Positions 52,613 to 62,022 are shown, counted from the stretch's first letter. The stretch is 64,000 bases of DNA from Deltaproteobacteria bacterium (GCA_033763315.1 JANRKS010000009.1:288001-352000); one strand, 5' to 3'. Program-made: numbers and translations. Notes: generated by a model not told the origin, from the sequence alone.

Positions 52613-54184
52613 ATGGCCAGCGTATTTACCGCCGCCCAAGCGCGGGCGTCAGATCAATTTGTGATGTCCACGTTGGGCTTGCCGGGCGTGGTGTTGATGG
52701 AAAATGCGGGGCGCGGGGTGGCGCGCGTGATTCGCCGGGCGCTGCTCAAGAAGAATCAGACGCTGGCAAACGCCAAAGTTGTTGTGGTGTGTGGTGCGGG
52801 GCAAAACGGTGGCGATGGCTTTGTGATCGCGCGGCACCTGCATCTGATGGGCGCGCGTGTGCAAGTTTATTTGGTGATGCCAGCGGCGAAGATCCAAGGC
52901 GACGCGGCGGTGAACCTGCGGGCATTGCAGGGCCTTGACGAGGTGCCGGTGGACGACGTGAGCGATGTGCTCGACGAAGAAGCCTGGTGGGATTGGCTCA
53001 ACGACGCGGACGTGTTGGTTGACGCGATCTTTGGTACTGGTTTGCGCGCGGACGTTACGGGTGTGCCTGCGGTGGCCATCGCGGCGATGAACGAAAGCCG
53101 CGCGCTGCGTGTGGCTGTGGACGTGCCGTCGGGGCTCAATGCCGACACGGGCCGGGTGCAGGGCGTGGCGGTCAACGCTGACGTCACGGCGACCATGGCC
53201 GTGCGCAAGCTAGGTTTGGTGGTGGATGCCGACGCGCCGGTGGGTGAGGTTGTGGTTGTGGGCCTTGGGGCCCCACCGCATGAGGATCCGGCCTTGGCGC
53301 CGTTTGTGCGTTGGGTGGAACCAGCTTTGGTGAAGGCCTGGCTGCCGGTGTTCGGTGCCGCCGCTCACAAGGGAACACGCGGGCACGTGCTGCTCGTTGC
53401 GGGCTCGGAAGGTAAAACCGGCGCCGCGGCTTTGTGCGGTCGTGCGGCGCTGCGTGCAGGTGCGGGCTTGGTGACTGTGGCCACAACGAAAGCCGCGCAG
53501 ACGGCGGTGGACGCGAAGGTGTGGGAAGTGATGTCAGCGGCATTTACGTCCGTTGATGACGCCACCCCCGACAGCTTCGATGTGGTGATGCGGTTGTCAT
53601 CAAAGATGAAGTCGATCGGCCTTGGCCCAGGTTTGCCCACCGGCCCGGGAACAGCGGCTTTCGTGCAGCGGATGGCGGTGCAATGCGCTTTGCCGATGGT
53701 CATCGATGCAGAAGCGTTGAATCACATCGCTGCCGACCCCGGCGTTTTGATGCAGGCACGTGGGCCCCGCGTATTGACACCGCATCCAGCCGAGATGGCG
53801 CGGCTGTTGGGCGTCACAACAACCGACGTGCAGGCCGATCGCGCGACGGCAGCACGAACGCTGGCGCAGAAAACGCAGGCGATCGTGGTGCTCAAAGGCG
53901 CACGCACCCTGGTTGCTTTGCCGAACGGAACTCTTTATGTGAACCCTGCGGCGTCGCCCGCGCTTGGCACCGCGGGCAGCGGCGACGTTTTGACGGGGGC
54001 AATCGCCGCGTTGTTGGCGCAAGGGCTCACGGCGGAGCAGGCAAGTGTGTGTGGTGTGTTCGTGCACGGCATGGCGGCCGATGACGCCTGTGCTCGCTTG
54101 GGTTTGCAGCACCTTTTGGCCGGCGAGCTGCCTGACGCGTTTGCGCGCGTGCAAGCCGCCCTGCAGTCGGTTCCTCAGATCTGA
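52613..54184 (+). CDS. nnr: Bifunctional NAD(P)HX epimerase/dehydratase
   Basis: LMENAGRG, GQNGGDG, DAIFGTG, DVPSG, HKGTRG, TPHPAEMARL, GTAGSGDVL; SD AAGGAG before ATG 52613. Confidence 0.93.
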   Translation: MASVFTAAQARASDQFVMSTLGLPGVVLMENAGRGVARVIRRALLKKNQTLANAKVVVVCGAGQNGGDGFVIARHLHLMGARVQVYLVMPAAKIQGDAAVNLRALQGLDEVPVDDVSDVLDEEAWWDWLNDADVLVDAIFGTGLRADVTGVPAVAIAAMNESRALRVAVDVPSGLNADTGRVQGVAVNADVTATMAVRKLGLVVDADAPVGEVVVVGLGAPPHEDPALAPFVRWVEPALVKAWLPVFGAAAHKGTRGHVLLVAGSEGKTGAAALCGRAALRAGAGLVTVATTKAAQTAVDAKVWEVMSAAFTSVDDATPDSFDVVMRLSSKMKSIGLGPGLPTGPGTAAFVQRMAVQCALPMVIDAEALNHIAADPGVLMQARGPRVLTPHPAEMARLLGVTTTDVQADRATAARTLAQKTQAIVVLKGARTLVALPNGTLYVNPAASPALGTAGSGDVLTGAIAALLAQGLTAEQASVCGVFVHGMAADDACARLGLQHLLAGELPDAFARVQAALQSVPQI

Positions 54185-56442
54185 ACGCCCAGCACGAATC
54201 CGGGGTACAAGCGGACGGTGGTGTCGCCGTCACGGTAAACCTTCTCAAGCACCCCGAGCCCGGCCTTGTAGTCCATCTTGTTCCAAGACGTTTCCACGTT
54301 GAATGTGGGGCCGAGGGTAAGCGCGAAGTGCTTCGCGACGGAATAACCCAAAACCGCGCGCAAAGTGCCAAGCGTGCTGTCGCGCTCGCCATAGTCGGAA
54401 CTGTTGCCCATCTGCGTGCCGACCACATCGAGATCCACCCACATCGGCCCGCCTGGTGGCGTGATGTGAAAACCAAGACCCAAGTGTGTGCTGTACGTTT
54501 GGCGATCATCGTCGCCCTTGGTGATGCCGCCGCCCAACACAGTGTAGAAGTGTCGCGCGCCGAGTTTCAGGCTCACGTTCGTGCGGCTCGTGTCGCTCGT
54601 ATAGAACGAGAGGCCGTGGTAGCCGTCCCTTACAAAAGGAATGATGCCCACCGAAGCGCCTTCCATAGAATTGGCAACATTCACAACGCCAATCTGCGTG
54701 CCTTTGACTTTTGAGGCCACGTTGACGACGCCAATTTGTGCACCCGTGACAGTGCCACCGATGTTAACCACGCCCATCTGGAGGCTGCCGTCAAGAACGC
54801 CTGCCAGGTTGACGACACCCGCTTGGAACCCCTTGAACTCACCGCGGTTGACGTTTATCACCGCCGGCGCAAAGCCCACGAACTTGCCGCTGTTGTAATT
54901 GATGACGGCCGCTTGCACGCCTTTGAAGTCACCCTCAGACCAATTGAACATCGCGGCCTGCACGCCCGTGAAAGCGCCATGCGATACGTTCAACAGCGCT
55001 CCCGTTTGCAAACCGTAAAAGCCACCCAAGGCCATGTTGACGCCAGATGAGAACTGCGCACCCCTGCCATAGCCGCGTGACAGGTTAAGTCCTGTGGCGA
55101 ATTGGGCGCCATGCATTTCGCCTTCAACGATGTTGCCGCCCAGCGATAGCTGCACCCCGCGCAGTTCGTCTGAATGGCCAAGCAGGCCCAAAACAAACCT
55201 GTGGCGCACCTTTTGTTCGGGATGCCCAGACAGACGCACGCCCGGGGCTGCGACCAGATCGAAAGCCACATCGCGCAGCGGCTGCGCTTCGGATTCACCA
55301 TCACCGCGTAAGGTCGCCACAAACGAAGTGGTGGGCGCAAAGTCGTTCTGTGCCAGCTGACGGCGCTTGCCTTTTTCGAGCGTCACGTTGGTTTCAAAAG
55401 GACGGCCATCGGCATCAAGCAGCACACGGTACGTGCCTGGGCCGAGGCCGAGTTCCACGGGATAAACAGGCTCTTTGCGCAACTCAACCAACAGGCGCCC
55501 GGCGGCGTCTCGCACGTAGATGCGTCCAGAGAGCGTTTCGTTGAGCACCAACGTGGCGTCGGTGGCGCGCAGATCCGTCATCACCAGATCGCCCGTGCCA
55601 GCGAGTTGAATGTCGTACGCAGCATGTTGAGCGCCCGCGTGGCTCTTTTCTGTGCGGCGCAGGGTTTCGTCGTAAGCGAACTGATACGCTTCACCCAACG
55701 TCACCTTGCCGTCGCGGCTGCTGTCGGCGGCGCCGCGCAAACCAGAAACCAAATAATGTGTGAAGAAGGCCGCTCCCACGCGGTCTGATTCTTGGGCCGA
55801 TTCATCGGCGGAGCTGGCCGTTAAGAACGCGTGGCCACGAGCGTCGCTGCTGACGTCTGCAAGGAACGGCGCGCGCATGGCGCCGCCCTTGAGGCGAATC
55901 ATGGCGCCCGACGAACATGAATCCAAAATGGCGATGCGTACGTCGGCGCCCAAATCTTGAATCCACTGGCGAAGCTCGCGGTACGTGATGCGGTCGCTGC
56001 CCAGCAACAGGCCCTCTTCGTCAGAGTGGCCCGAGTAATACACGAACAATTCTTTGCGCGTGCCGGGTGCCTGCGCTTCTTGCAAGCGTGTGCGCAGCTT
56101 ATCAAAGCCGATCTCCACACTGGTGCGGTTGGCGTTTGGCAACATGATGAGATCGCGCGGATCCAATCCGCCCAATTGCATGAGCACATCCGACATGGCC
56201 TTGGCGTCAGAGTTGGCAAAGCGCAATTGTGCGCGGCTGCCACCGCCATTGTTTGAGGAAGCGATGAGCGCGTACCGACGCAGGTGCGATGATGGTGCAT
56301 GCGCATCGGCAAGCGCCGCGCGATCGACGAGGCAAAGCAGCGCAACGACGATCGCAAAAGCCAGAAGCAGACGTGCGATGAACAGCGACAGCGCTTGCGA
56401 TGCAAAGGCGGGCGCGCGAACAACGGTGCGAGAAGGCATCAC
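54175..56442 (-). CDS. Exported caspase-family (peptidase C14) protease fused to GxQxGxxN repeats and probable C-terminal outer-membrane beta-barrel
   Basis: Signal/TM segment, LRFANSDA, YYSGHSD (His), ILDSCSSG (Cys), FTHYLVSGLRGAAD; about 12 repeats of 14-16 aa; amphipathic strands ending PGFVLGVQI. Confidence 0.85.
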   Translation of the reverse strand: MMPSRTVVRAPAFASQALSLFIARLLLAFAIVVALLCLVDRAALADAHAPSSHLRRYALIASSNNGGGSRAQLRFANSDAKAMSDVLMQLGGLDPRDLIMLPNANRTSVEIGFDKLRTRLQEAQAPGTRKELFVYYSGHSDEEGLLLGSDRITYRELRQWIQDLGADVRIAILDSCSSGAMIRLKGGAMRAPFLADVSSDARGHAFLTASSADESAQESDRVGAAFFTHYLVSGLRGAADSSRDGKVTLGEAYQFAYDETLRRTEKSHAGAQHAAYDIQLAGTGDLVMTDLRATDATLVLNETLSGRIYVRDAAGRLLVELRKEPVYPVELGLGPGTYRVLLDADGRPFETNVTLEKGKRRQLAQNDFAPTTSFVATLRGDGESEAQPLRDVAFDLVAAPGVRLSGHPEQKVRHRFVLGLLGHSDELRGVQLSLGGNIVEGEMHGAQFATGLNLSRGYGRGAQFSSGVNMALGGFYGLQTGALLNVSHGAFTGVQAAMFNWSEGDFKGVQAAVINYNSGKFVGFAPAVINVNRGEFKGFQAGVVNLAGVLDGSLQMGVVNIGGTVTGAQIGVVNVASKVKGTQIGVVNVANSMEGASVGIIPFVRDGYHGLSFYTSDTSRTNVSLKLGARHFYTVLGGGITKGDDDRQTYSTHLGLGFHITPPGGPMWVDLDVVGTQMGNSSDYGERDSTLGTLRAVLGYSVAKHFALTLGPTFNVETSWNKMDYKAGLGVLEKVYRDGDTTVRLYPGFVLGVQI
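54633..55170 (-). repeat. Tandem 14-16 aa GxQxG/AxxN coding repeats (beta-solenoid-like)
   Basis: e.g. GDFKGVQAAVINYN, GEFKGFQAGVVNLA, TVTGAQIGVVNVA, KVKGTQIGVVNVA. Confidence 0.8.
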
Positions 56443-57218
56443 TGTGGGTCCTTTTTGAAGGTCACTTGGAAGCTGGTGGTGTCGGCAGGCAACGCCGCGC
56501 CCGTTTGCAGCGCGGTTGTGATGGTTTGCGATTCAAACGGCGTGGGCGAAAGCACCAGCCAAAACCGTTCAAACCCTTTGGAGTTATCCAACTCGTAGGC
56601 GTTGGGAAGGCGGTTTTCACCGTTGGTTTGCAACGTGGGTGCGCGCCCAGGCACCGAAGGAAGATGCAGCGTGGTGGTGTTCGCTGCGTCGATGGACACG
56701 ATCACGCCATAAGGGGCTGCCGCGCCTTGGGCGTTGGGGGGGACCACGTAAGCCACTTGCAGCACGTCGCCTGGGTGAACAACATCTTGCGCGGTTAGGC
56801 GTTCAGGTGCGCCTTCGCGTTTGCGATAGACGACGAGGTGAGGCTTGGCGCCTTTGATGTTGATTGTTTCTTCGCCCACGTCAGTCACCAAGGTGGTGGT
56901 TGAGCGTGGCGCCACAGCGATGAGGACCAGTGCACCCACAGCGCCGAGCGCGAGGGCCGGTAAGACGAACGGGCGCCGCGCGGGCTTGTTCGTTTGTTGA
57001 CCGGATCGACGACGGATTTCGTTCGCCATCCAGTGCGGTGGGTGACGGGAGAAGATCTCGTCGTCTGACTTGGCCAAGTTTTCCATGGCTGCGGCGAGGC
57101 CGCCTGGTTGTTGTTCAAGTCGTTGCCGTAACTCTTCTGCCTGAGCTTGCGGCAATTCGCCTTTGGCCAGACGTTCAAGCAGATATTGCGGCACGGGCGT
57201 GTGTTGGCGGTTTGTCAT
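56439..57218 (-). CDS. Membrane anti-sigma-like protein (ActD-like, DUF4384-type periplasmic domain)
   Basis: LLERLAKGELP N-terminal helix bundle, single TM, IKG motif, PGDVLQVAY, VIVSID...TLHLP, AYELD...ERF; TAATG-coupled to the sigma gene. Confidence 0.75.
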   Translation of the reverse strand: MTNRQHTPVPQYLLERLAKGELPQAQAEELRQRLEQQPGGLAAAMENLAKSDDEIFSRHPPHWMANEIRRRSGQQTNKPARRPFVLPALALGAVGALVLIAVAPRSTTTLVTDVGEETINIKGAKPHLVVYRKREGAPERLTAQDVVHPGDVLQVAYVVPPNAQGAAAPYGVIVSIDAANTTTLHLPSVPGRAPTLQTNGENRLPNAYELDNSKGFERFWLVLSPTPFESQTITTALQTGAALPADTTSFQVTFKKDPQ

Positions 57219-57739
57219 TAATGCACCAAACTTGCGGGAAGGTCTGTGGCTGCCTCTTGTGGCAGACGTTCTTTGAGCACACGCAAACGCTTGCGCACAC
57301 CCGAAACGGAAAGCCCCACCTCCGCCGCCACCTCTTCCAAGGTCAATCGGTCCACGTAGTGCAAAACGGCGATGAGTTGCGTTGATGGAGGTGTGCCTGA
57401 AAACAGGCGCTGCAACACCCGGCGCCCCAGCGACAAGCTTTCACTGTCGCCGCCTTCGCCGAGCCCACTGATGTGGTGAAGCATCACGGTATCGGGATCG
57501 GTTTCGTGCTCGGGGTGCCGCTTCTCGGTCCGCAGCCGGTTGAGGCACACATTTGTGGCCGCTTTGAGCAGCAGCCCCGCGGGAGCTTCTTGGGTGAGTG
57601 TGTCTTGGCGACGCAGCATTACTACGAATGTGTCTTGCATGGCATCCAGGGCTTTCCCCTCGTCTTTGAGCAGGCGGCGACAGCGCCGCAGGACCATCGG
57701 TCCGAACTGCCTGTAGAGGTTTTCAACGTCGAGCGCCAT
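57218..57739 (-). CDS. ECF RNA polymerase sigma factor
   Basis: ATG 57739: LYRQFGPMVLRRCRRLL..ALDAMQDTF, ATNVCLNRLR, LTLEEVAAEVGLSVSGVRKRL. Confidence 0.9.
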   Translation of the reverse strand: MALDVENLYRQFGPMVLRRCRRLLKDEGKALDAMQDTFVVMLRRQDTLTQEAPAGLLLKAATNVCLNRLRTEKRHPEHETDPDTVMLHHISGLGEGGDSESLSLGRRVLQRLFSGTPPSTQLIAVLHYVDRLTLEEVAAEVGLSVSGVRKRLRVLKERLPQEAATDLPASLVH

Positions 57740-57759
57740 TGGTGGGGTTCTTAACCTGA

Positions 57760-57787
57760 AACACCGGCGCGGAAAGAAAGTGTTACC
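57760..57787 (-). promoter_or_regulatory. Putative autoregulatory ECF promoter GGTAAC-N16-GGTGTT
   Basis: GGTAACactttctttccgcgccGGTGTT, 20 nt before the sigma ATG; recurs at 61428-61455. Confidence 0.75.
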
Positions 57788-57834
57788 GCGAAGATCAAAA
57801 AAATTTTGGCTCCACTGGCCCGGCGCGCTACGCG

Positions 57835-58902
57835 TCACGGGAGGACTTGGATGCTCATCTGTCGCCAGCCGGTGCCGCCACGCAGGTCGCGGACCACCAT
57901 CCACAGTGACACCATGCCGCCGGTGGCAGCCGGGGGAACGTCGGGCGCTGTGAACACGTTGTCGAACGTCTTTGTGAGGGCCGCGGCGGTGCGGTCGGAG
58001 CCCAGGGCACCCGCTGTGGCAAACCACGAGACGACGGGCTGCTCCTTCGTTTCGATGATTTCAAGCCGGCTGTCCTGCAAGGCCGACTCGATGCTTTGGT
58101 AAGGCTCAAACGCGCCCTCTGAAAGGGTGGGCAGCAAGCGCACCTTCTCCTTGGCCCTCATAACCAACGCGCCATCAACGGGCGCAAACGGGAGGCCTGC
58201 TGTGCTTCCGCGGGCAACGGACACGGAGGTGATCTGCGGGTTCTGGTTGGGCGTGCGCGGACGCACGGCAAGGCAACCTGGTACCGGTGCGTTTGCCTCA
58301 CATACCCGAAAGCCGAAAGTGGTCGACAGCTCGGGGTTCCACTGGGATAGGTCCAACGCGTTTAATGTCACGCGCTTTTGCACCGTCACAGTTTGCGGCC
58401 CGGCGTTCACAGTCAACACGGCCGACGGCCACGCCCCGTTGCCCAAGCCCATGGCCGAAGCGTCGAGGTGATAAGTGAACAGCTCTGCGGGCCACGCGGA
58501 AGCAAACGGGGCCACATCTTGCGCGCCGATGCCTTTGTCGGCCGCGGGCGTGCTTGTGCCCGTCATCGCCTGCGCAAACAGGGCGTCCAGCATGGGCCGC
58601 AGGGGCTGGGGCGCTTGATCACGAAGCGCCGGAAAGTTCGTGCACGCTTCGGCAGAATCCACCGGGCAGAACCGCCACGCGAAGGTCGCAGGCGCACCGC
58701 CGCGTGGATCGTCCACCAAGGCGGTGAACGTCACTTGCGGCGCGCTCCAGCCGGCTGTGCGATCGAACAGCACCTCCGGAGGCTCAGCCGCCACGGCCAA
58801 CACGCGCAGGTCTTTGACTTCGGTGGGCTTGTCGCTGGGCTCACCGCAGGCAGCCACAAGCGTCGCGCTGGCTAAGAGTGAGAAAATAAGTGGGGTTTTC
58901 AT
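57835..58902 (-). CDS. Lipoprotein partner of the TonB-dependent receptor
   Basis: Lipobox LVAAC; VKDLRVLAVAAEPPE, NQNP, SWFATAG, WMVVRDLRGGTGW; TGATG-coupled to the receptor gene. Confidence 0.78.
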   Translation of the reverse strand: MKTPLIFSLLASATLVAACGEPSDKPTEVKDLRVLAVAAEPPEVLFDRTAGWSAPQVTFTALVDDPRGGAPATFAWRFCPVDSAEACTNFPALRDQAPQPLRPMLDALFAQAMTGTSTPAADKGIGAQDVAPFASAWPAELFTYHLDASAMGLGNGAWPSAVLTVNAGPQTVTVQKRVTLNALDLSQWNPELSTTFGFRVCEANAPVPGCLAVRPRTPNQNPQITSVSVARGSTAGLPFAPVDGALVMRAKEKVRLLPTLSEGAFEPYQSIESALQDSRLEIIETKEQPVVSWFATAGALGSDRTAAALTKTFDNVFTAPDVPPAATGGMVSLWMVVRDLRGGTGWRQMSIQVLP

Positions 58903-61397
58903 CAGATTTCACCTTTCACGCCCACGATGGGCAATACGGGCAGGCCACGAAGCTCGGTGCGCTCTGCATAACGGTAGTCGTATCCAACGGCCTCCACGGG
59001 ACGCCGGTTGTACGTGTTCATCACTTCCAAATAGCTGGTCAAGCTCCAGCCTTTGAAGTCCCAACGCTTGTCGAAGCGCAGGTCCAGGCGATGGAACGTA
59101 GGCAACCGTTCAGACGCACGCGCCACGGAGCCGTTTTGCACTTTATAGGTATCGCTATCAGCGTCGAAGTGGGAGCGGCCCTTCTCAAGTGGCGTTGTAG
59201 GGTTGCCAGATACGAGTTGGAAGCGGAAACCGAGTGACATCTTCCACGGCAATTGCCACGCGCCCACCGCCGTGAGGATGTGTGTTTGATCGAACGGCGA
59301 AAGATACGTGCTGGCCACTTTCGGCAGTTCATAAAGCCGGGCCGATCCTGGATCGACGCTGGCGTATTGGTTGATGCCGCCGAGCGTGGCCGTGCGATCT
59401 GTGCGCGTGGAGCGCGACAAGGTATACGCCACCCAGCCGTTGAAACGCCGGTGCTCGGCCGGGTTGCGCTTCACCATCAATTCAAGGCCATACGAATGCC
59501 CGCGGCCGTCGCTCTTGAACAGCACAGGCGTGGCCTTGCCATCTTTGTAGGTCACTTCATCTGTGGGCGAGGGCAGATTGGATCGCCACACATTGAACAC
59601 CTCGGCGCTTAGGTTCACGGCTTCGAGACTTCGTTCGGCGCCGCTCGTTATATGCACGGCTTTTTCAGCCGAAAGATTGGGCTGGCCAAAACCATCAACC
59701 ATCACGCCCGAAAAAAGATCGGGCAGTTTTTGGTAAACGCCGGCCGAGGCTTTCACCGATGTTTGCTCGTTGATTTGCCAGCGGCTCGCCAAGCGCGGCT
59801 GGAACGTGAAGCGTTCGGTGCTGTCGAAATCCAAGTGATCCACGCGCAAGCCAGGCGTCAAGGTCACATCGGGATGAGGGTTGACGACAAGCTCCGTCCA
59901 ATAGCCCTGGTGCAGATCTGTGTTGCCGTCCTTCCATGGGTCTTGTCGAGTGGGATCCACGATCAACGGCGATGGGTACGTGCGACCGAGGTTCGGCAGC
60001 TCGGTAATGAAGTCGGCGCTCCAATGGTAAAGCTGGCTGTCGATGCCGGCGCGCAACTTTATATAGGGGGAAAACGCATAGGTCGCAGTTTCTTTCCAGC
60101 TCAAGCTTGTGATCGTCACGCCCGAACGGTGTTGCGTATCGAGCTCTGCTGATTTGTCGCCGAAGTCCTGCTTCAGCAAGCCCGGCGTCAGCGCGGATTC
60201 AAGCGTTAGTTTGTTGCCAAAATACGTGTGCCGCACTTGCAAACGGTGAAATTGCACGCCGCCTGAGAGTGAGAAGTCAGCGTCTTCGGCTGATGTGGCA
60301 CGCACGACTTTAAGCGTGTCGCGGGCTCCAAAGGCAAAGATGTCCCAACGTTGGTGGGCGTCGTGGTGTTCAGCTTTGATCTGATAATCAAGGTAGGCGG
60401 GGGTCACGATGGTGGGGCTTTCACCGTCCTTGGCGGCCCCCTCAAGCAGTGCGGGCAAAAACGCATCCACGTAAGAACGGCGCCCGGCGAGCGCGAGCTT
60501 CCACGATCCCAGCGGCACGCACGTGAAGGCTTCTGCATCAATCGGATCGATCGAGGCCAGCGCGCGTGTGCGGTCGCAAGTTAACGGCTTGGTTTGCACA
60601 TCCACGATGCCCGCCGTGGCACGACCATACTGCGCGCCAAAGCCGCCTGGCATGAAGGTGATGCCACCTAAGAACTCAGCGTTGATCACCGACGTTAGGC
60701 CGCCGAAGTGATAAAGCAGCGGCACTTCAACACCATCGATGTACACGCCGCTATCAGCAGGGTTGGCCCCGCGCACGATTAACGCCCCACCAATCCCTCC
60801 GGGCGCGCGGTTCATACCGGGCAGGTTCTCGACCACGCGCACCGGATCGCCCATCGTCCCGGGCACCGTCTTGATTTCACTGTCCGTGAGCACGATCTCC
60901 GTGACTTCACGCTTGGGACGCGACGCTTTTGCCTTCACCTCGAACACCACCGCCTCGGCTTGTGTCAGGCGGTAGCGCACGGGCACGTCCACGTTGGCGT
61001 CGATTTGCACCTCACCGTCTTTCGGATCGTATTCACCGCTCATCACCAACACGCTGTGCGGGCCCGTACGCAAGGGACGCACCAACAGGTTGCCGTCGGC
61101 GTCGGTTTCACCGCGCGCGTCGCCGTCAATCATCACGGTTGCGCCGGGCACTGGCTCTCCCGTCTTCCCGTCAACGAGCGTCAGCCGCAAGCCGCCGTGC
61201 TGTTTGATCTGCACAGGCGGCGGTGGTGCCATTTCGGTTGGTGCGGCGGGCGTCGCCTCGGGCGGGGGCGAGGTTTCCGTGGGCGTGTCGGTTGGCCCTT
61301 CCGCTTGCGGCGGCGCGGGATCCTGTGCCAAGGCGGCGTGCGCCCAGGCAGGCAGGGCGAGCACGCAAGCGATCGTCAGTCTGATTGTCTTCTTCAT
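58902..61397 (-). CDS. TonB-dependent receptor with N-terminal carboxypeptidase-regulatory-like domain
   Basis: Signal peptide; plug motifs VPGTMGDPVRVVENLPG, IVRG, LYHFGG, PGGFGAQYGRATAG; barrel ending LDLRFDK...PIVGVKGEI. Confidence 0.92.
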   Translation of the reverse strand: MKKTIRLTIACVLALPAWAHAALAQDPAPPQAEGPTDTPTETSPPPEATPAAPTEMAPPPPVQIKQHGGLRLTLVDGKTGEPVPGATVMIDGDARGETDADGNLLVRPLRTGPHSVLVMSGEYDPKDGEVQIDANVDVPVRYRLTQAEAVVFEVKAKASRPKREVTEIVLTDSEIKTVPGTMGDPVRVVENLPGMNRAPGGIGGALIVRGANPADSGVYIDGVEVPLLYHFGGLTSVINAEFLGGITFMPGGFGAQYGRATAGIVDVQTKPLTCDRTRALASIDPIDAEAFTCVPLGSWKLALAGRRSYVDAFLPALLEGAAKDGESPTIVTPAYLDYQIKAEHHDAHQRWDIFAFGARDTLKVVRATSAEDADFSLSGGVQFHRLQVRHTYFGNKLTLESALTPGLLKQDFGDKSAELDTQHRSGVTITSLSWKETATYAFSPYIKLRAGIDSQLYHWSADFITELPNLGRTYPSPLIVDPTRQDPWKDGNTDLHQGYWTELVVNPHPDVTLTPGLRVDHLDFDSTERFTFQPRLASRWQINEQTSVKASAGVYQKLPDLFSGVMVDGFGQPNLSAEKAVHITSGAERSLEAVNLSAEVFNVWRSNLPSPTDEVTYKDGKATPVLFKSDGRGHSYGLELMVKRNPAEHRRFNGWVAYTLSRSTRTDRTATLGGINQYASVDPGSARLYELPKVASTYLSPFDQTHILTAVGAWQLPWKMSLGFRFQLVSGNPTTPLEKGRSHFDADSDTYKVQNGSVARASERLPTFHRLDLRFDKRWDFKGWSLTSYLEVMNTYNRRPVEAVGYDYRYAERTELRGLPVLPIVGVKGEI

Positions 61398-61427
61398 GGT
61401 CCGTCCGATGTGGGGATTCCTCCCAAG

Positions 61428-61455
61428 AACACCGGCGGATGAAAAAGCTGTTACC
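61428..61455 (-). promoter_or_regulatory. Putative ECF promoter GGTAAC-N16-GGTGTT
   Basis: GGTAACagctttttcatccgccGGTGTT, 30 nt before the receptor ATG. Confidence 0.75.
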
Positions 61456-61530
61456 TAGAACTCAACGCCGTTAGAAGGTGCTGCCGACCCCGGAATAGGG
61501 GTTGCGTCCGGTGCTGGCTGAAGGGCGATG

Positions 61531-62013
61531 TCATGGAACGGACGTCTCTTCGAGGGCCGCCAGCAACCGCAGCAGCGTTGCATGCATGTGCTTCGCATCG
61601 GCGGTCCCAATCACGTTGCCTAGCTGCGCTTCAAGCTCGCCCAACATGGCCAAACCCATGAGCAGCCCCTTTTTCCCGCGTGCCGAAAACATCACCAACC
61701 GCGCGCGGCCATCGGCCGGATCCGCCACTTGCTCAAGCAGGCCCATTTCCACCAGCTCCTCCACCAATTGCCCCACGGCCTGCTTGCTGATACCCACACG
61801 TTCCGCCAAGACACCGGGCCGCGTTCCTTGCAGATCAATATGGGGGAACAAAGCTGTGTGTGAGGGCCGCACGTGTTGTTTGGTCCGTTTTTGCAAAAGT
61901 GCCAGCGCGCGCTCGTTGAGTAGACGCGCACACTTGAACAGCACCTGCGCCCAAGAAGCATTCTTGGCGACGGCAAGCGCGGCGGCAAACTCATCGGAAG
62001 GGGGGGCTGGCAT
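61531..62013 (-). CDS. MarR family transcriptional regulator
   Basis: LAERVGISKQAVGQLVEELVEMGLL..DPADGRARLV.FSARG; ATG 62013 (alternative TTG 62022). Confidence 0.9.
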   Translation of the reverse strand: MPAPPSDEFAAALAVAKNASWAQVLFKCARLLNERALALLQKRTKQHVRPSHTALFPHIDLQGTRPGVLAERVGISKQAVGQLVEELVEMGLLEQVADPADGRARLVMFSARGKKGLLMGLAMLGELEAQLGNVIGTADAKHMHATLLRLLAALEETSVP

Positions 62014-62022
62014 ATGGTCCAA

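Follow-up and report, generated by a model that had tools for sequence, protein, structure and literature searches.

A sigma/anti-sigma/caspase module conserved in Myxococcota, with a caspase, probably tethered to the outer membrane, as candidate site-1 protease

The subject of this analysis is a group of five genes in a 64,000-nt stretch of DNA (hereafter the window) from a Deltaproteobacteria bacterium (GCA_033763315.1 JANRKS010000009.1:288001-352000; genome 7,633,441 bases). The genes encode an outer membrane protein resembling TonB-dependent receptors (TBDRs), a lipoprotein, a sigma factor of the extracytoplasmic function (ECF) type, a single-pass anti-sigma-like protein and an exported caspase of family C14. 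We found that the last three constitute a conserved three-gene signalling module that is widespread in Myxococcota, and that the module appears to control the neighbouring outer membrane transporter operon. The best-supported mechanism, at about even odds, is that the caspase, a candidate site-1 protease, cuts the anti-sigma factor beside which it is encoded. For the reading as a whole, namely a Myxococcota module in which an outer-membrane-tethered caspase cuts the anti-sigma after an envelope signal, we would put the probability at roughly 0.5.

All five genes lie on the minus strand and fall into two blocks, receptor/lipoprotein and sigma/anti-sigma/caspase, within which the reading frames overlap. 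The receptor and lipoprotein genes meet at TGATG (58902), the sigma and anti-sigma genes at TAATG (57218), and the anti-sigma and caspase genes at GTGATG (56442/56439), while a 95-nt gap lies between the lipoprotein and sigma genes. Each block is preceded by an exact copy of the same promoter-like motif, GGTAACA-N12-GCCGGTGTT. The coordinates and overlaps therefore match the first-pass annotation of this region, which had described five co-oriented genes in two translationally coupled blocks, each behind the same motif (Table 1).

A profile of the anti-sigma family, built from 15 homologues, retrieved 6830 cluster representatives with E<=1e-3 (2144 with E<=1e-30), and when 401 genomes of the same phylum were sampled, 131 had a match to the family. 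The 60 best family matches, one per genome and with about 8 kb on each side, were taken as an orthologous set and searched with the window's five proteins; a second set comprised 60 lower-scoring, paralogue-type anti-sigma loci. The caspase adjoined the anti-sigma homologue in all 60 orthologous loci and the sigma factor did so in 59, the sigma gene being missed in one locus (L035) even though the promoter motif is present upstream. The order sigma, anti-sigma, caspase on one strand was kept in 58/60 loci; in the remaining two (L036 and L041) the caspase gene is divergent. A caspase was also encoded directly downstream of the anti-sigma in 59 of the 60 paralogue-type loci, such that over both sets, drawn from other genomes of the phylum, it was adjacent in 119/120. 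Crude clustering of the flanking genes placed no other family in more than 7 of the 60 orthologous loci, a figure that is approximate because the filter on third-codon-position GC content (GC3) lost some true genes, only 42 of the 60 caspases surviving it. The triad, previously noted in other myxobacteria, is thus a conserved unit.

The window's own genome holds at least eight further sigma/anti-sigma/caspase triads (Table 1), all with Peptidase_C14. At ~510-590 aa the caspases of these triads are shorter, and they have neither the beta-helix nor the barrel described below; most of their anti-sigmas keep an HxxxCxxC zinc motif. One paralogous locus (L145) looked at first like an anti-sigma–caspase fusion but proved to contain two ordinary genes.

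The idea of a site-1 cut gains new support from a short pattern that occurs in both proteins. In the anti-sigma, the linker on the periplasmic side of the membrane segment contains only two invariant residues, K122 and G123 (57/57 orthologues), with Arg at P3 (position -2) in 44 of the 57; in the structure model the pair lies at the edge of a segment with a predicted local distance difference test score (pLDDT) below 50. In the caspase, the sequence T/I-R-x-K-G-G is found in a loop that lies 7-11 residues beyond the catalytic Cys, with R183, K185, G186 and G187 invariant in 38/38 sequences, and residues 178-211, which contain it, again have pLDDT <50. An R-x-K-G motif is therefore common to both proteins, in periplasm-exposed segments that are probably flexible, to judge from the models. 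Over 67 pairs that include paralogues, P1 is Lys or Arg in 65 of the anti-sigmas and in all of the caspases. The intersubunit processing site of caspases is located in the loop that directly follows the catalytic Cys; metacaspases cleave after Arg or Lys, and the Asp of their D-x-C motif forms part of the S1 pocket. The shared motif fits a site-1 cut of the anti-sigma linker by the caspase.

The architecture of the caspase would place it in the right compartment. The protein matches Peptidase_C14 (PF00656) at 32.5 bits against a cut-off of 21.4, NCBIfam adding LA_2272 surface repeats. Its export signal, like the lipobox of the lipoprotein and the single membrane helix of the anti-sigma, was read from the sequence together with structure models. 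In the model (mean pLDDT 83.8), a hydrophobic helix (14-45) followed by A-L-A, which we read as a signal peptide, leads into a caspase domain (54-265), a beta-sandwich (287-363), a beta-helix (390-604) and a C-terminal eight-stranded barrel (608-754). Residues 52-297 have the caspase-hemoglobinase fold, matching Arabidopsis metacaspase 4 (Z 16.3, 201 residues aligned) and caspase-9 (Z 15.4), and the top Foldseek match is the caspase-Ig3 part of MALT1 (E 1.4e-3). The His-Cys dyad (Y-S-G-H139 and D-S-C176) is invariant in 38/38 aligned orthologues; the first-pass annotation had noted the intact dyad as well as the export signal. Residues 389-634 resemble the beta-helical antifreeze protein 3p4g (Z 18.6) and the HMW1 secretion domain (Z 15.8), the likeness to autotransporter and two-partner secretion (TPS) passengers being at Z 14-16. 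Residues 604-755 match the OprF N-domain (Z 14.6), NspA (13.6) and OmpW (12.9) and also the transmembrane domain of OmpA, consistent with the proposed outer membrane anchor. There was no Autotransporter match in Pfam for the protein, and its C-terminal ~150 residues match eight-stranded barrels, a strand count taken from the model. Classical (type Va) autotransporters bring their passenger to the cell surface through a C-terminal barrel of 12 strands. Both chain ends of OmpA-type eight-stranded barrels are periplasmic. The caspase is therefore most likely periplasmic, hanging on its beta-helix stalk and barrel from the inner face of the outer membrane. The long C-terminal part is present in 50 of the 60 orthologous loci.

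The sigma factor, recognised as such from the outset, matches Sigma70_r2 (E 8.4e-10) and exceeds the TIGR02937 cut-off (56.6 bits versus 42.9), with Sigma70_r4_2 just below its own (E 2.5e-5, 24.3 bits versus 25.7). Its 173 residues hold the sigma-2 and sigma-4 regions alone, as in ECF (group IV) factors, which have about 170-200 aa. The anti-sigma gene lies at position +1 to the sigma gene. In the model of its product (pLDDT 81.8), four N-terminal helices (11-75) are predicted on the cytoplasmic side, then, after basic residues, a poorly modelled hydrophobic segment that is probably transmembrane (~84-104), and beyond it a disordered linker (106-121) and a predicted periplasmic beta-sandwich (127-224). 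The barrel and signal helix of the caspase and the basic residues before the anti-sigma membrane segment would bring the caspase and the C-terminal anti-sigma domain to the same, periplasmic side, as had been proposed. Fold matches of the N-terminal domain are weak (RslA, Z 5.2 over 62 residues; RsiW, Z 5.0 over 69), those of the sandwich are to Ig/macroglobulin-type folds (Z up to 6.8), and a search of the family profile against PDB sequences returned nothing useful. The N-terminal domain has no Cys and thus does not carry the H-x3-C-x2-C zinc motif (zf-HC2) associated with class I (ASD/ZAS) transmembrane anti-sigmas. Zinc-free anti-sigma domains exist, and a missing zinc motif does not exclude anti-sigma function. 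The same-genome paralogues that carry HxxxCxxC show weak zf-HC2 matches (best E 6.3e-4), and in Atlas neighbour clusters of the anti-sigma zf-HC2 occurs in 47-52% of members, with zf-HC2 and DUF4384 in a third to half.

As to the periplasmic domain itself, the first-pass annotation had assigned one membrane span and a DUF4384-like fold. The former agrees with the model, whereas the latter has weak matches only. DUF4384 (PF14326) scores 12.6 bits (E 0.15) against a gathering cut-off of 27 bits; it matches weakly in 8 of 15 homologues (best E 0.0029), and a single paralogue of the same genome (C28) passes the cut-off, at 31.7 bits. From these scores the protein is a probable distant relative of DUF4384 rather than a scored member, and 'DUF4384-like anti-sigma' is a reasonable label for it. 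The name 'ActD-like', which had also been given, comes from one NCBI metagenome record, and no link to the M. xanthus act operon was found.

These observations suggest a model in which an envelope signal would activate the tethered caspase, probably via autoprocessing at its own T/I-R-x-K-G-G loop. The caspase would then cut the anti-sigma after Lys122, at the R/x-x-K-G site of the disordered juxtamembrane linker (the site-1 cut), and an M50 site-2 protease would remove the stub. The freed sigma factor would in turn induce its own operon, and with it more caspase, together with the TBDR–lipoprotein operon. Genes for M50 site-2 proteases are present in the genome, and the periplasmic stub of ~17 residues that a cut after K122 would leave is a plausible substrate for them. 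A surface ligand had been suggested as the activator; nothing points to one, and the anchor of the caspase is a small eight-stranded barrel.

Several points weigh against this model. The Lys/Arg P1 specificity of the caspase is inferred, by analogy, from the role of the D-x-C motif and from the conserved K-G sites. Moreover, K-G conservation could be structural, because the pair lies at the entry to the first beta-strand. Covariation of the two sites is weak: at P3 the counts of Arg and non-Arg residues form the table 42/4/14/7, for which Fisher's test gives p 0.028 without a correction for relatedness; at P1, four anti-sigmas with Arg are paired with caspases that have Lys; and in the window itself P3 is Asn in the anti-sigma and Arg in the caspase loop. 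Such covariation, striking by eye in the eight same-genome triads, was set aside as support, and since the signal is weak over the 67 pairs we do not rest the case on it. The pairing of the genes also has exceptions, with two anti-sigma homologues that have no caspase nearby (L107 and L146, the latter belonging to a sigma/anti-sigma pair in the window's genome) and one caspase, also in the window's genome, that has neither sigma nor anti-sigma nearby (L144). On the predicted topology, an enzyme anchored in the outer membrane and an anti-sigma domain ~17 residues from the inner membrane must meet across the periplasm. Finally, co-transcription agrees equally well with a caspase that is itself an output of the sigma factor.

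This last point leads to the most serious alternative, in which the caspase is the output and not the trigger. The sigma/anti-sigma pair would then sense envelope stress through another site-1 protease, or through a ligand bound to the DUF4384-like domain, and the caspase would be an induced effector that acts on other periplasmic or outer membrane proteins in events such as remodelling of the envelope or cell death. The promoter motif bears on this reading. The motif GGTAACA-N12-GCCGGTGTT has two matches in the window against 0.03 expected, and these are the only exact copies in the whole genome; sites with two mismatches number six genome-wide, which is not above the 11 of a reversed control. 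In 48/60 orthologous loci the 200 nt upstream of the sigma gene contain a related pattern, GT[GA]AC-N14-16-[CGT]GGTGT, which has 75 sites in 824,700 bases versus 3 for the reversed control, and several of the remaining loci have near-variants there when inspected by eye. Since GTRACA-N14-CGGTGTT before the sigma gene combines the GGAAC-like -35 and CGT-like -10 elements expected of an autoregulated ECF promoter, we infer that the motif is a putative ECF promoter, the copy before the sigma operon (copy 2) being its presumed autoregulatory promoter. No sigma-70-type promoter was found in 54000-61700, and terminator-like sites in the same interval were not above chance (8 found versus 9.3 expected).

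In the orthologous loci, 27 extra motif sites precede different envelope genes in different lineages. The genes behind them encode a TBDR with a TonB_C domain (L009), an ExbB adjoining a TBDR (L021), TSP3-repeat proteins (L018, L030 and L031), DUF4097 (L010) and DUF2807 (L045) proteins, and several proteins without a family. Because the motif precedes the sigma gene as well as these varied envelope genes, it appears that the sigma factor controls its own gene and, in addition, a small envelope regulon that varies. The divergent caspase gene of L036 and L041 has a motif copy of its own; as the separated caspase keeps the promoter motif of the sigma factor, it belongs to the sigma regulon in any case.

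Some individual genes behind the motif are worth recording. The TBDR homologue of L009 (11795-14212, +; relative G385) is found downstream of the caspase, is preceded by a motif copy of its own, and carries TonB_C (E 6.7e-13) where the window's receptor has CarboxypepD_reg. The TSP3 proteins (L018:6709-7362, L030:11067-11831 and L031:3981-4379) are small bacterial proteins with thrombospondin type 3 repeats, which usually bind calcium. In L037 (11119-12291, +) and L041 (6666-7964, -), separate genes similar to the caspase's C-terminal part with its repeats and barrel (phmmer E ~1e-21) adjoin the triad, each behind its own motif copy. The anchor module of the caspase can therefore also exist as a protein of its own.

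The position of the caspase in the sigma operon, its own motif copy when separated, the envelope nature of the other motif-preceded genes (TBDR, ExbB, TSP3-repeat, DUF4097 and DUF2807) and the weak motif covariation are all consistent with an output caspase. However, there would be no need for an effector to adjoin a single anti-sigma family as constantly as here (119 of 120 loci) when the other neighbours vary (7/60 at most), and the R-x-K-G motif common to the anti-sigma linker would stay unexplained. We therefore regard the output reading as possible but rather unlikely.

A further alternative is that the caspase is bound by the periplasmic domain of the anti-sigma but leaves it uncut. The domain would then be a docking site, a pseudo-substrate or an inhibitor, and signalling would work by sequestration or partner switching, or the anti-sigma would report the state of the caspase. 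DUF4384 has been described as often fused to protease domains (10.1101/2022.08.17.504292, available text), the domain is weakly like macroglobulin-type domains (Z 5.3-5.8), and the substrate-like motif could serve as a pseudo-substrate. Against this, the fold matches are too low to mean more than a common sandwich, and release of membrane-bound ECF anti-sigmas normally needs proteolysis, as established for the RseA/RsiW type. The invariant catalytic dyad also speaks for caspase activity being under selection. Binding without cleavage is, in our estimate, improbable.

The receptor and lipoprotein bear on the output side of the preferred site-1 model. The receptor has a plug followed by a barrel domain, the arrangement of TBDRs with their 22-stranded barrels (Plug, 33.4 bits versus 23.9, E 7e-8, residues 170-263; TonB_dep_Rec_b-barrel, 74.9 bits versus 27, E 1.5e-20, residues 372-787), with a signal peptide at the N-terminus and CarboxypepD_reg at 71-144 (E 1.1e-7), so that its identity as a TBDR stands; NCBIfam matches were below cut-off only. 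Residues ~25-62 form a proline-rich low-complexity linker between the signal peptide and CarboxypepD_reg. The lipoprotein has no match in Pfam or NCBIfam; it falls in Myxococcota-dominated hypothetical-protein clusters of the Atlas and has weak Ig-like structural neighbours. A TBDR homologue is found near the triad in 3 of the 60 orthologous loci and the lipoprotein in 2, and the position of the TBDR varies: it lies downstream in L009 and upstream in L062, whereas L021 has it on the opposite strand. Elsewhere in the genome, away from triads, paralogous TBDR–lipoprotein pairs occur at C32:358228-362090 (-) and C11:81696-85612 (+), the pair being a recurrent two-gene unit. A metagenomic relative, L147/L149, has the same order TBDR, lipoprotein, sigma, anti-sigma, with GTAACA-N14-CGGTGTT before both the TBDR and the sigma gene, and is 69% identical to the window in DNA over the region. 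The two sequences were counted as one population because they are 98.6% identical to each other. A metagenome scan with a single protein had returned no relatives, and this one was found with a tighter alignment. Since the other copy of the motif lies before the TBDR–lipoprotein operon in this lineage, that operon would be the local regulon, and from its sequence context it appears to be a lineage-specific target of the module. The inclusion of the receptor pair in the system, as first annotated, thus holds for this lineage on account of the shared promoter motif, but not in general.

Signalling of the FecIRA type, in which the TBDR would sense a ligand and signal to the anti-sigma, has in its favour that the TBDR operon adjoins an ECF sigma/anti-sigma pair and has its promoter motif in common, but it is highly improbable given that Pfam searches found no STN signalling domain in the receptor and no FecR in the anti-sigma (E up to 0.1; for the anti-sigma family, E up to 1), that the receptor is absent from 57 of the 60 loci, and that TBDR–lipoprotein pairs also occur away from triads. 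Receptor-based sensing of the FecIRA kind, which the first-pass annotation had mentioned as known from other systems, is accordingly not supported here.

The site-1 model also admits a more specific form, a trans-envelope proteolytic ruler. Here the rigid stalk and barrel would hold the caspase at a fixed depth, such that it could cut the R-x-K-G linker only on a change in envelope geometry or outer membrane integrity, and the ~10 paralogous triads would be parallel switches, each with its own promoter and envelope regulon. We consider this form speculative and unlikely.

Table 1. Features of the five-gene region and further triads of the same genome (G000). Coordinates without a prefix are those of the window.
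Feature	Coordinates	Strand	Basis or remark
TBDR-like outer membrane protein, 831 aa	58902..61397	-	Pfam
Lipoprotein, 355 aa, lipobox LVAAC	57835..58902	-	start overlaps TBDR stop
ECF sigma factor, 173 aa, ATG at 57739	57218..57739	-	Sigma70_r2, TIGR02937
Single-pass anti-sigma-like protein, 259 aa	56439..57218	-	structure model, weak fold and DUF4384 matches
Exported C14 caspase, 755 aa	54175..56442	-	Pfam and NCBIfam, structure model
Putative ECF-type promoter motif, copy 1, GGTAACA-N12-GCCGGTGTT	61428..61455	-	30 nt upstream of TBDR start codon
Putative ECF-type promoter motif, copy 2, GGTAACA-N12-GCCGGTGTT	57760..57787	-	20 nt upstream of sigma start codon
Lys122-Gly123 codons of anti-sigma, candidate site-1 cleavage site in periplasmic juxtamembrane linker	56850..56855	-	conservation
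Arg183-Leu-Lys185-Gly-Gly187 codons of caspase loop, candidate autoprocessing site	55882..55896	-	conservation
Further triad	C28:170990-174060		
Further triad	C24:195558-198670		
Further triad	C11:46973-49844		
Further triad	C7:40761-43875		
Further triad	C20:3-2952		
Further triad	C28:75387-78306		
Further triad	C2:306397-308833		
Further triad	C22:27938-30276		

Two neighbouring genes flank the region. Upstream of the TBDR and on the same strand lies a MarR-family regulator gene (MarR_2, E 1.5e-10; 61531-62022, -), whose end is ~75 nt before promoter motif copy 1; the similarity to the relative L147 reaches into this MarR region. At the other side, the end of a convergent gene for a YjeF-type NAD(P)H-hydrate epimerase/dehydratase overlaps the last codons of the caspase gene by 10 bases (54175-54184).

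The proposed scheme can be set beside several known systems. In RseA/DegS/RseP and FecIRA signalling, a single-pass anti-sigma receives a periplasmic site-1 cut and is then processed by an M50 site-2 protease, the output of Fec being a TBDR operon. The scheme has this logic in common with them, and a TBDR operon as output in common with Fec. However, the DegS-type site-1 enzyme is an inner membrane PDZ serine protease, whereas the candidate here is a cysteine protease of caspase fold with a predicted outer membrane anchor; and, compared with FecIRA, no FecA signalling domain is present in the window's receptor, nor is the anti-sigma a FecR.

The first-pass annotation knew of no mechanism for the triad, which overlooks several precedents as well as an operon reported in 2012. 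Four of five M. xanthus metacaspases were described in operons with sigma-70-family factors, an arrangement also reported in Anaeromyxobacter, Haliangium, Sorangium, Ralstonia and Fibrobacter (Asplund-Samuelsson et al. 2012, PMC3501461). As far as the available parts of that survey go, these are operons of the same kind as the window's triad; those parts give no anti-sigma partner, promoter, regulon, topology or mechanism, and discuss the enzymes under cell death. In the Craspase of type III-E CRISPR systems, Csx29 (TPR-CHAT) cleaves Csx30, which binds RpoE; the system includes Csx31, and some Csx30 C-terminal domains are DUF4384 (bioRxiv 10.1101/2022.08.17.504292, available text). A caspase-fold protease thus cuts a protein that binds an ECF-type sigma factor, a cut for which the window's caspase is a candidate only. 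As described there, however, Craspase is cytoplasmic and RNA-guided with a CHAT protease bearing TPRs, unlike the separate exported C14 enzyme, transmembrane anti-sigma and periplasmic setting proposed here, and the five-gene region showed no sign of a link to CRISPR.

In DdvS/DdvA of M. xanthus, a transmembrane ECF anti-sigma carries a periplasmic TPR-CHAT module, with self-cleavage proposed to precede RseP (PMC11506125, available text). The window's system would, like DdvA, combine an ECF anti-sigma that spans the membrane with a periplasmic His-Cys module of caspase fold; in DdvA, on that account, the protease module is fused to the anti-sigma (~900 residues) and works within a dimer, whereas here it would be a separate, outer-membrane-tethered C14 protein. 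Indeed, the window's anti-sigma has 259 residues with a small beta-sandwich, and its protease is a separate gene, so that it is not a fusion of the DdvA type. The PCaspase of Haliangium ochraceum cleaves a putative sigma factor, PCc-sigma, in vitro (bioRxiv 10.1101/2023.06.23.546230, available text) and, like the window's caspase, is a myxobacterial Peptidase_C14 enzyme encoded with a sigma factor. In the same account, by contrast, it is cytoplasmic, is activated by SAVED-CHAT within a type III-B/CBASS system and has many substrates, with no membrane anti-sigma taking part. A supplement to the ECF reclassification places DUF4384 anti-sigmas under ECF25, with no caspase mentioned in the part available (PMC7826278). 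Our literature search found no study of the separate, outer-membrane-tethered C14 type or of its promoter. What is already known, as far as the available texts extend, is therefore the sigma–metacaspase operon (2012) and, from Craspase and DdvA, caspase-fold control of anti-sigmas.

Caspase homologues of family C14 are abundant in bacteria and almost none has a known substrate or role; release of ECF anti-sigmas, for its part, is understood for few protease types only. If the site-1 model is correct, K122-G123 would provide a defined, testable substrate site for a bacterial metacaspase, and the two promoters with their unique motif a self-contained reporter. It would be a second, non-fused and non-CRISPR case of sigma factor control by a caspase-fold protease, and if the ruler form held as well, such proteases would represent a general site-1 protease class for ECF signalling in Myxococcota. 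The model would also explain the many caspase genes that lie beside sigma factors in myxobacterial genomes.

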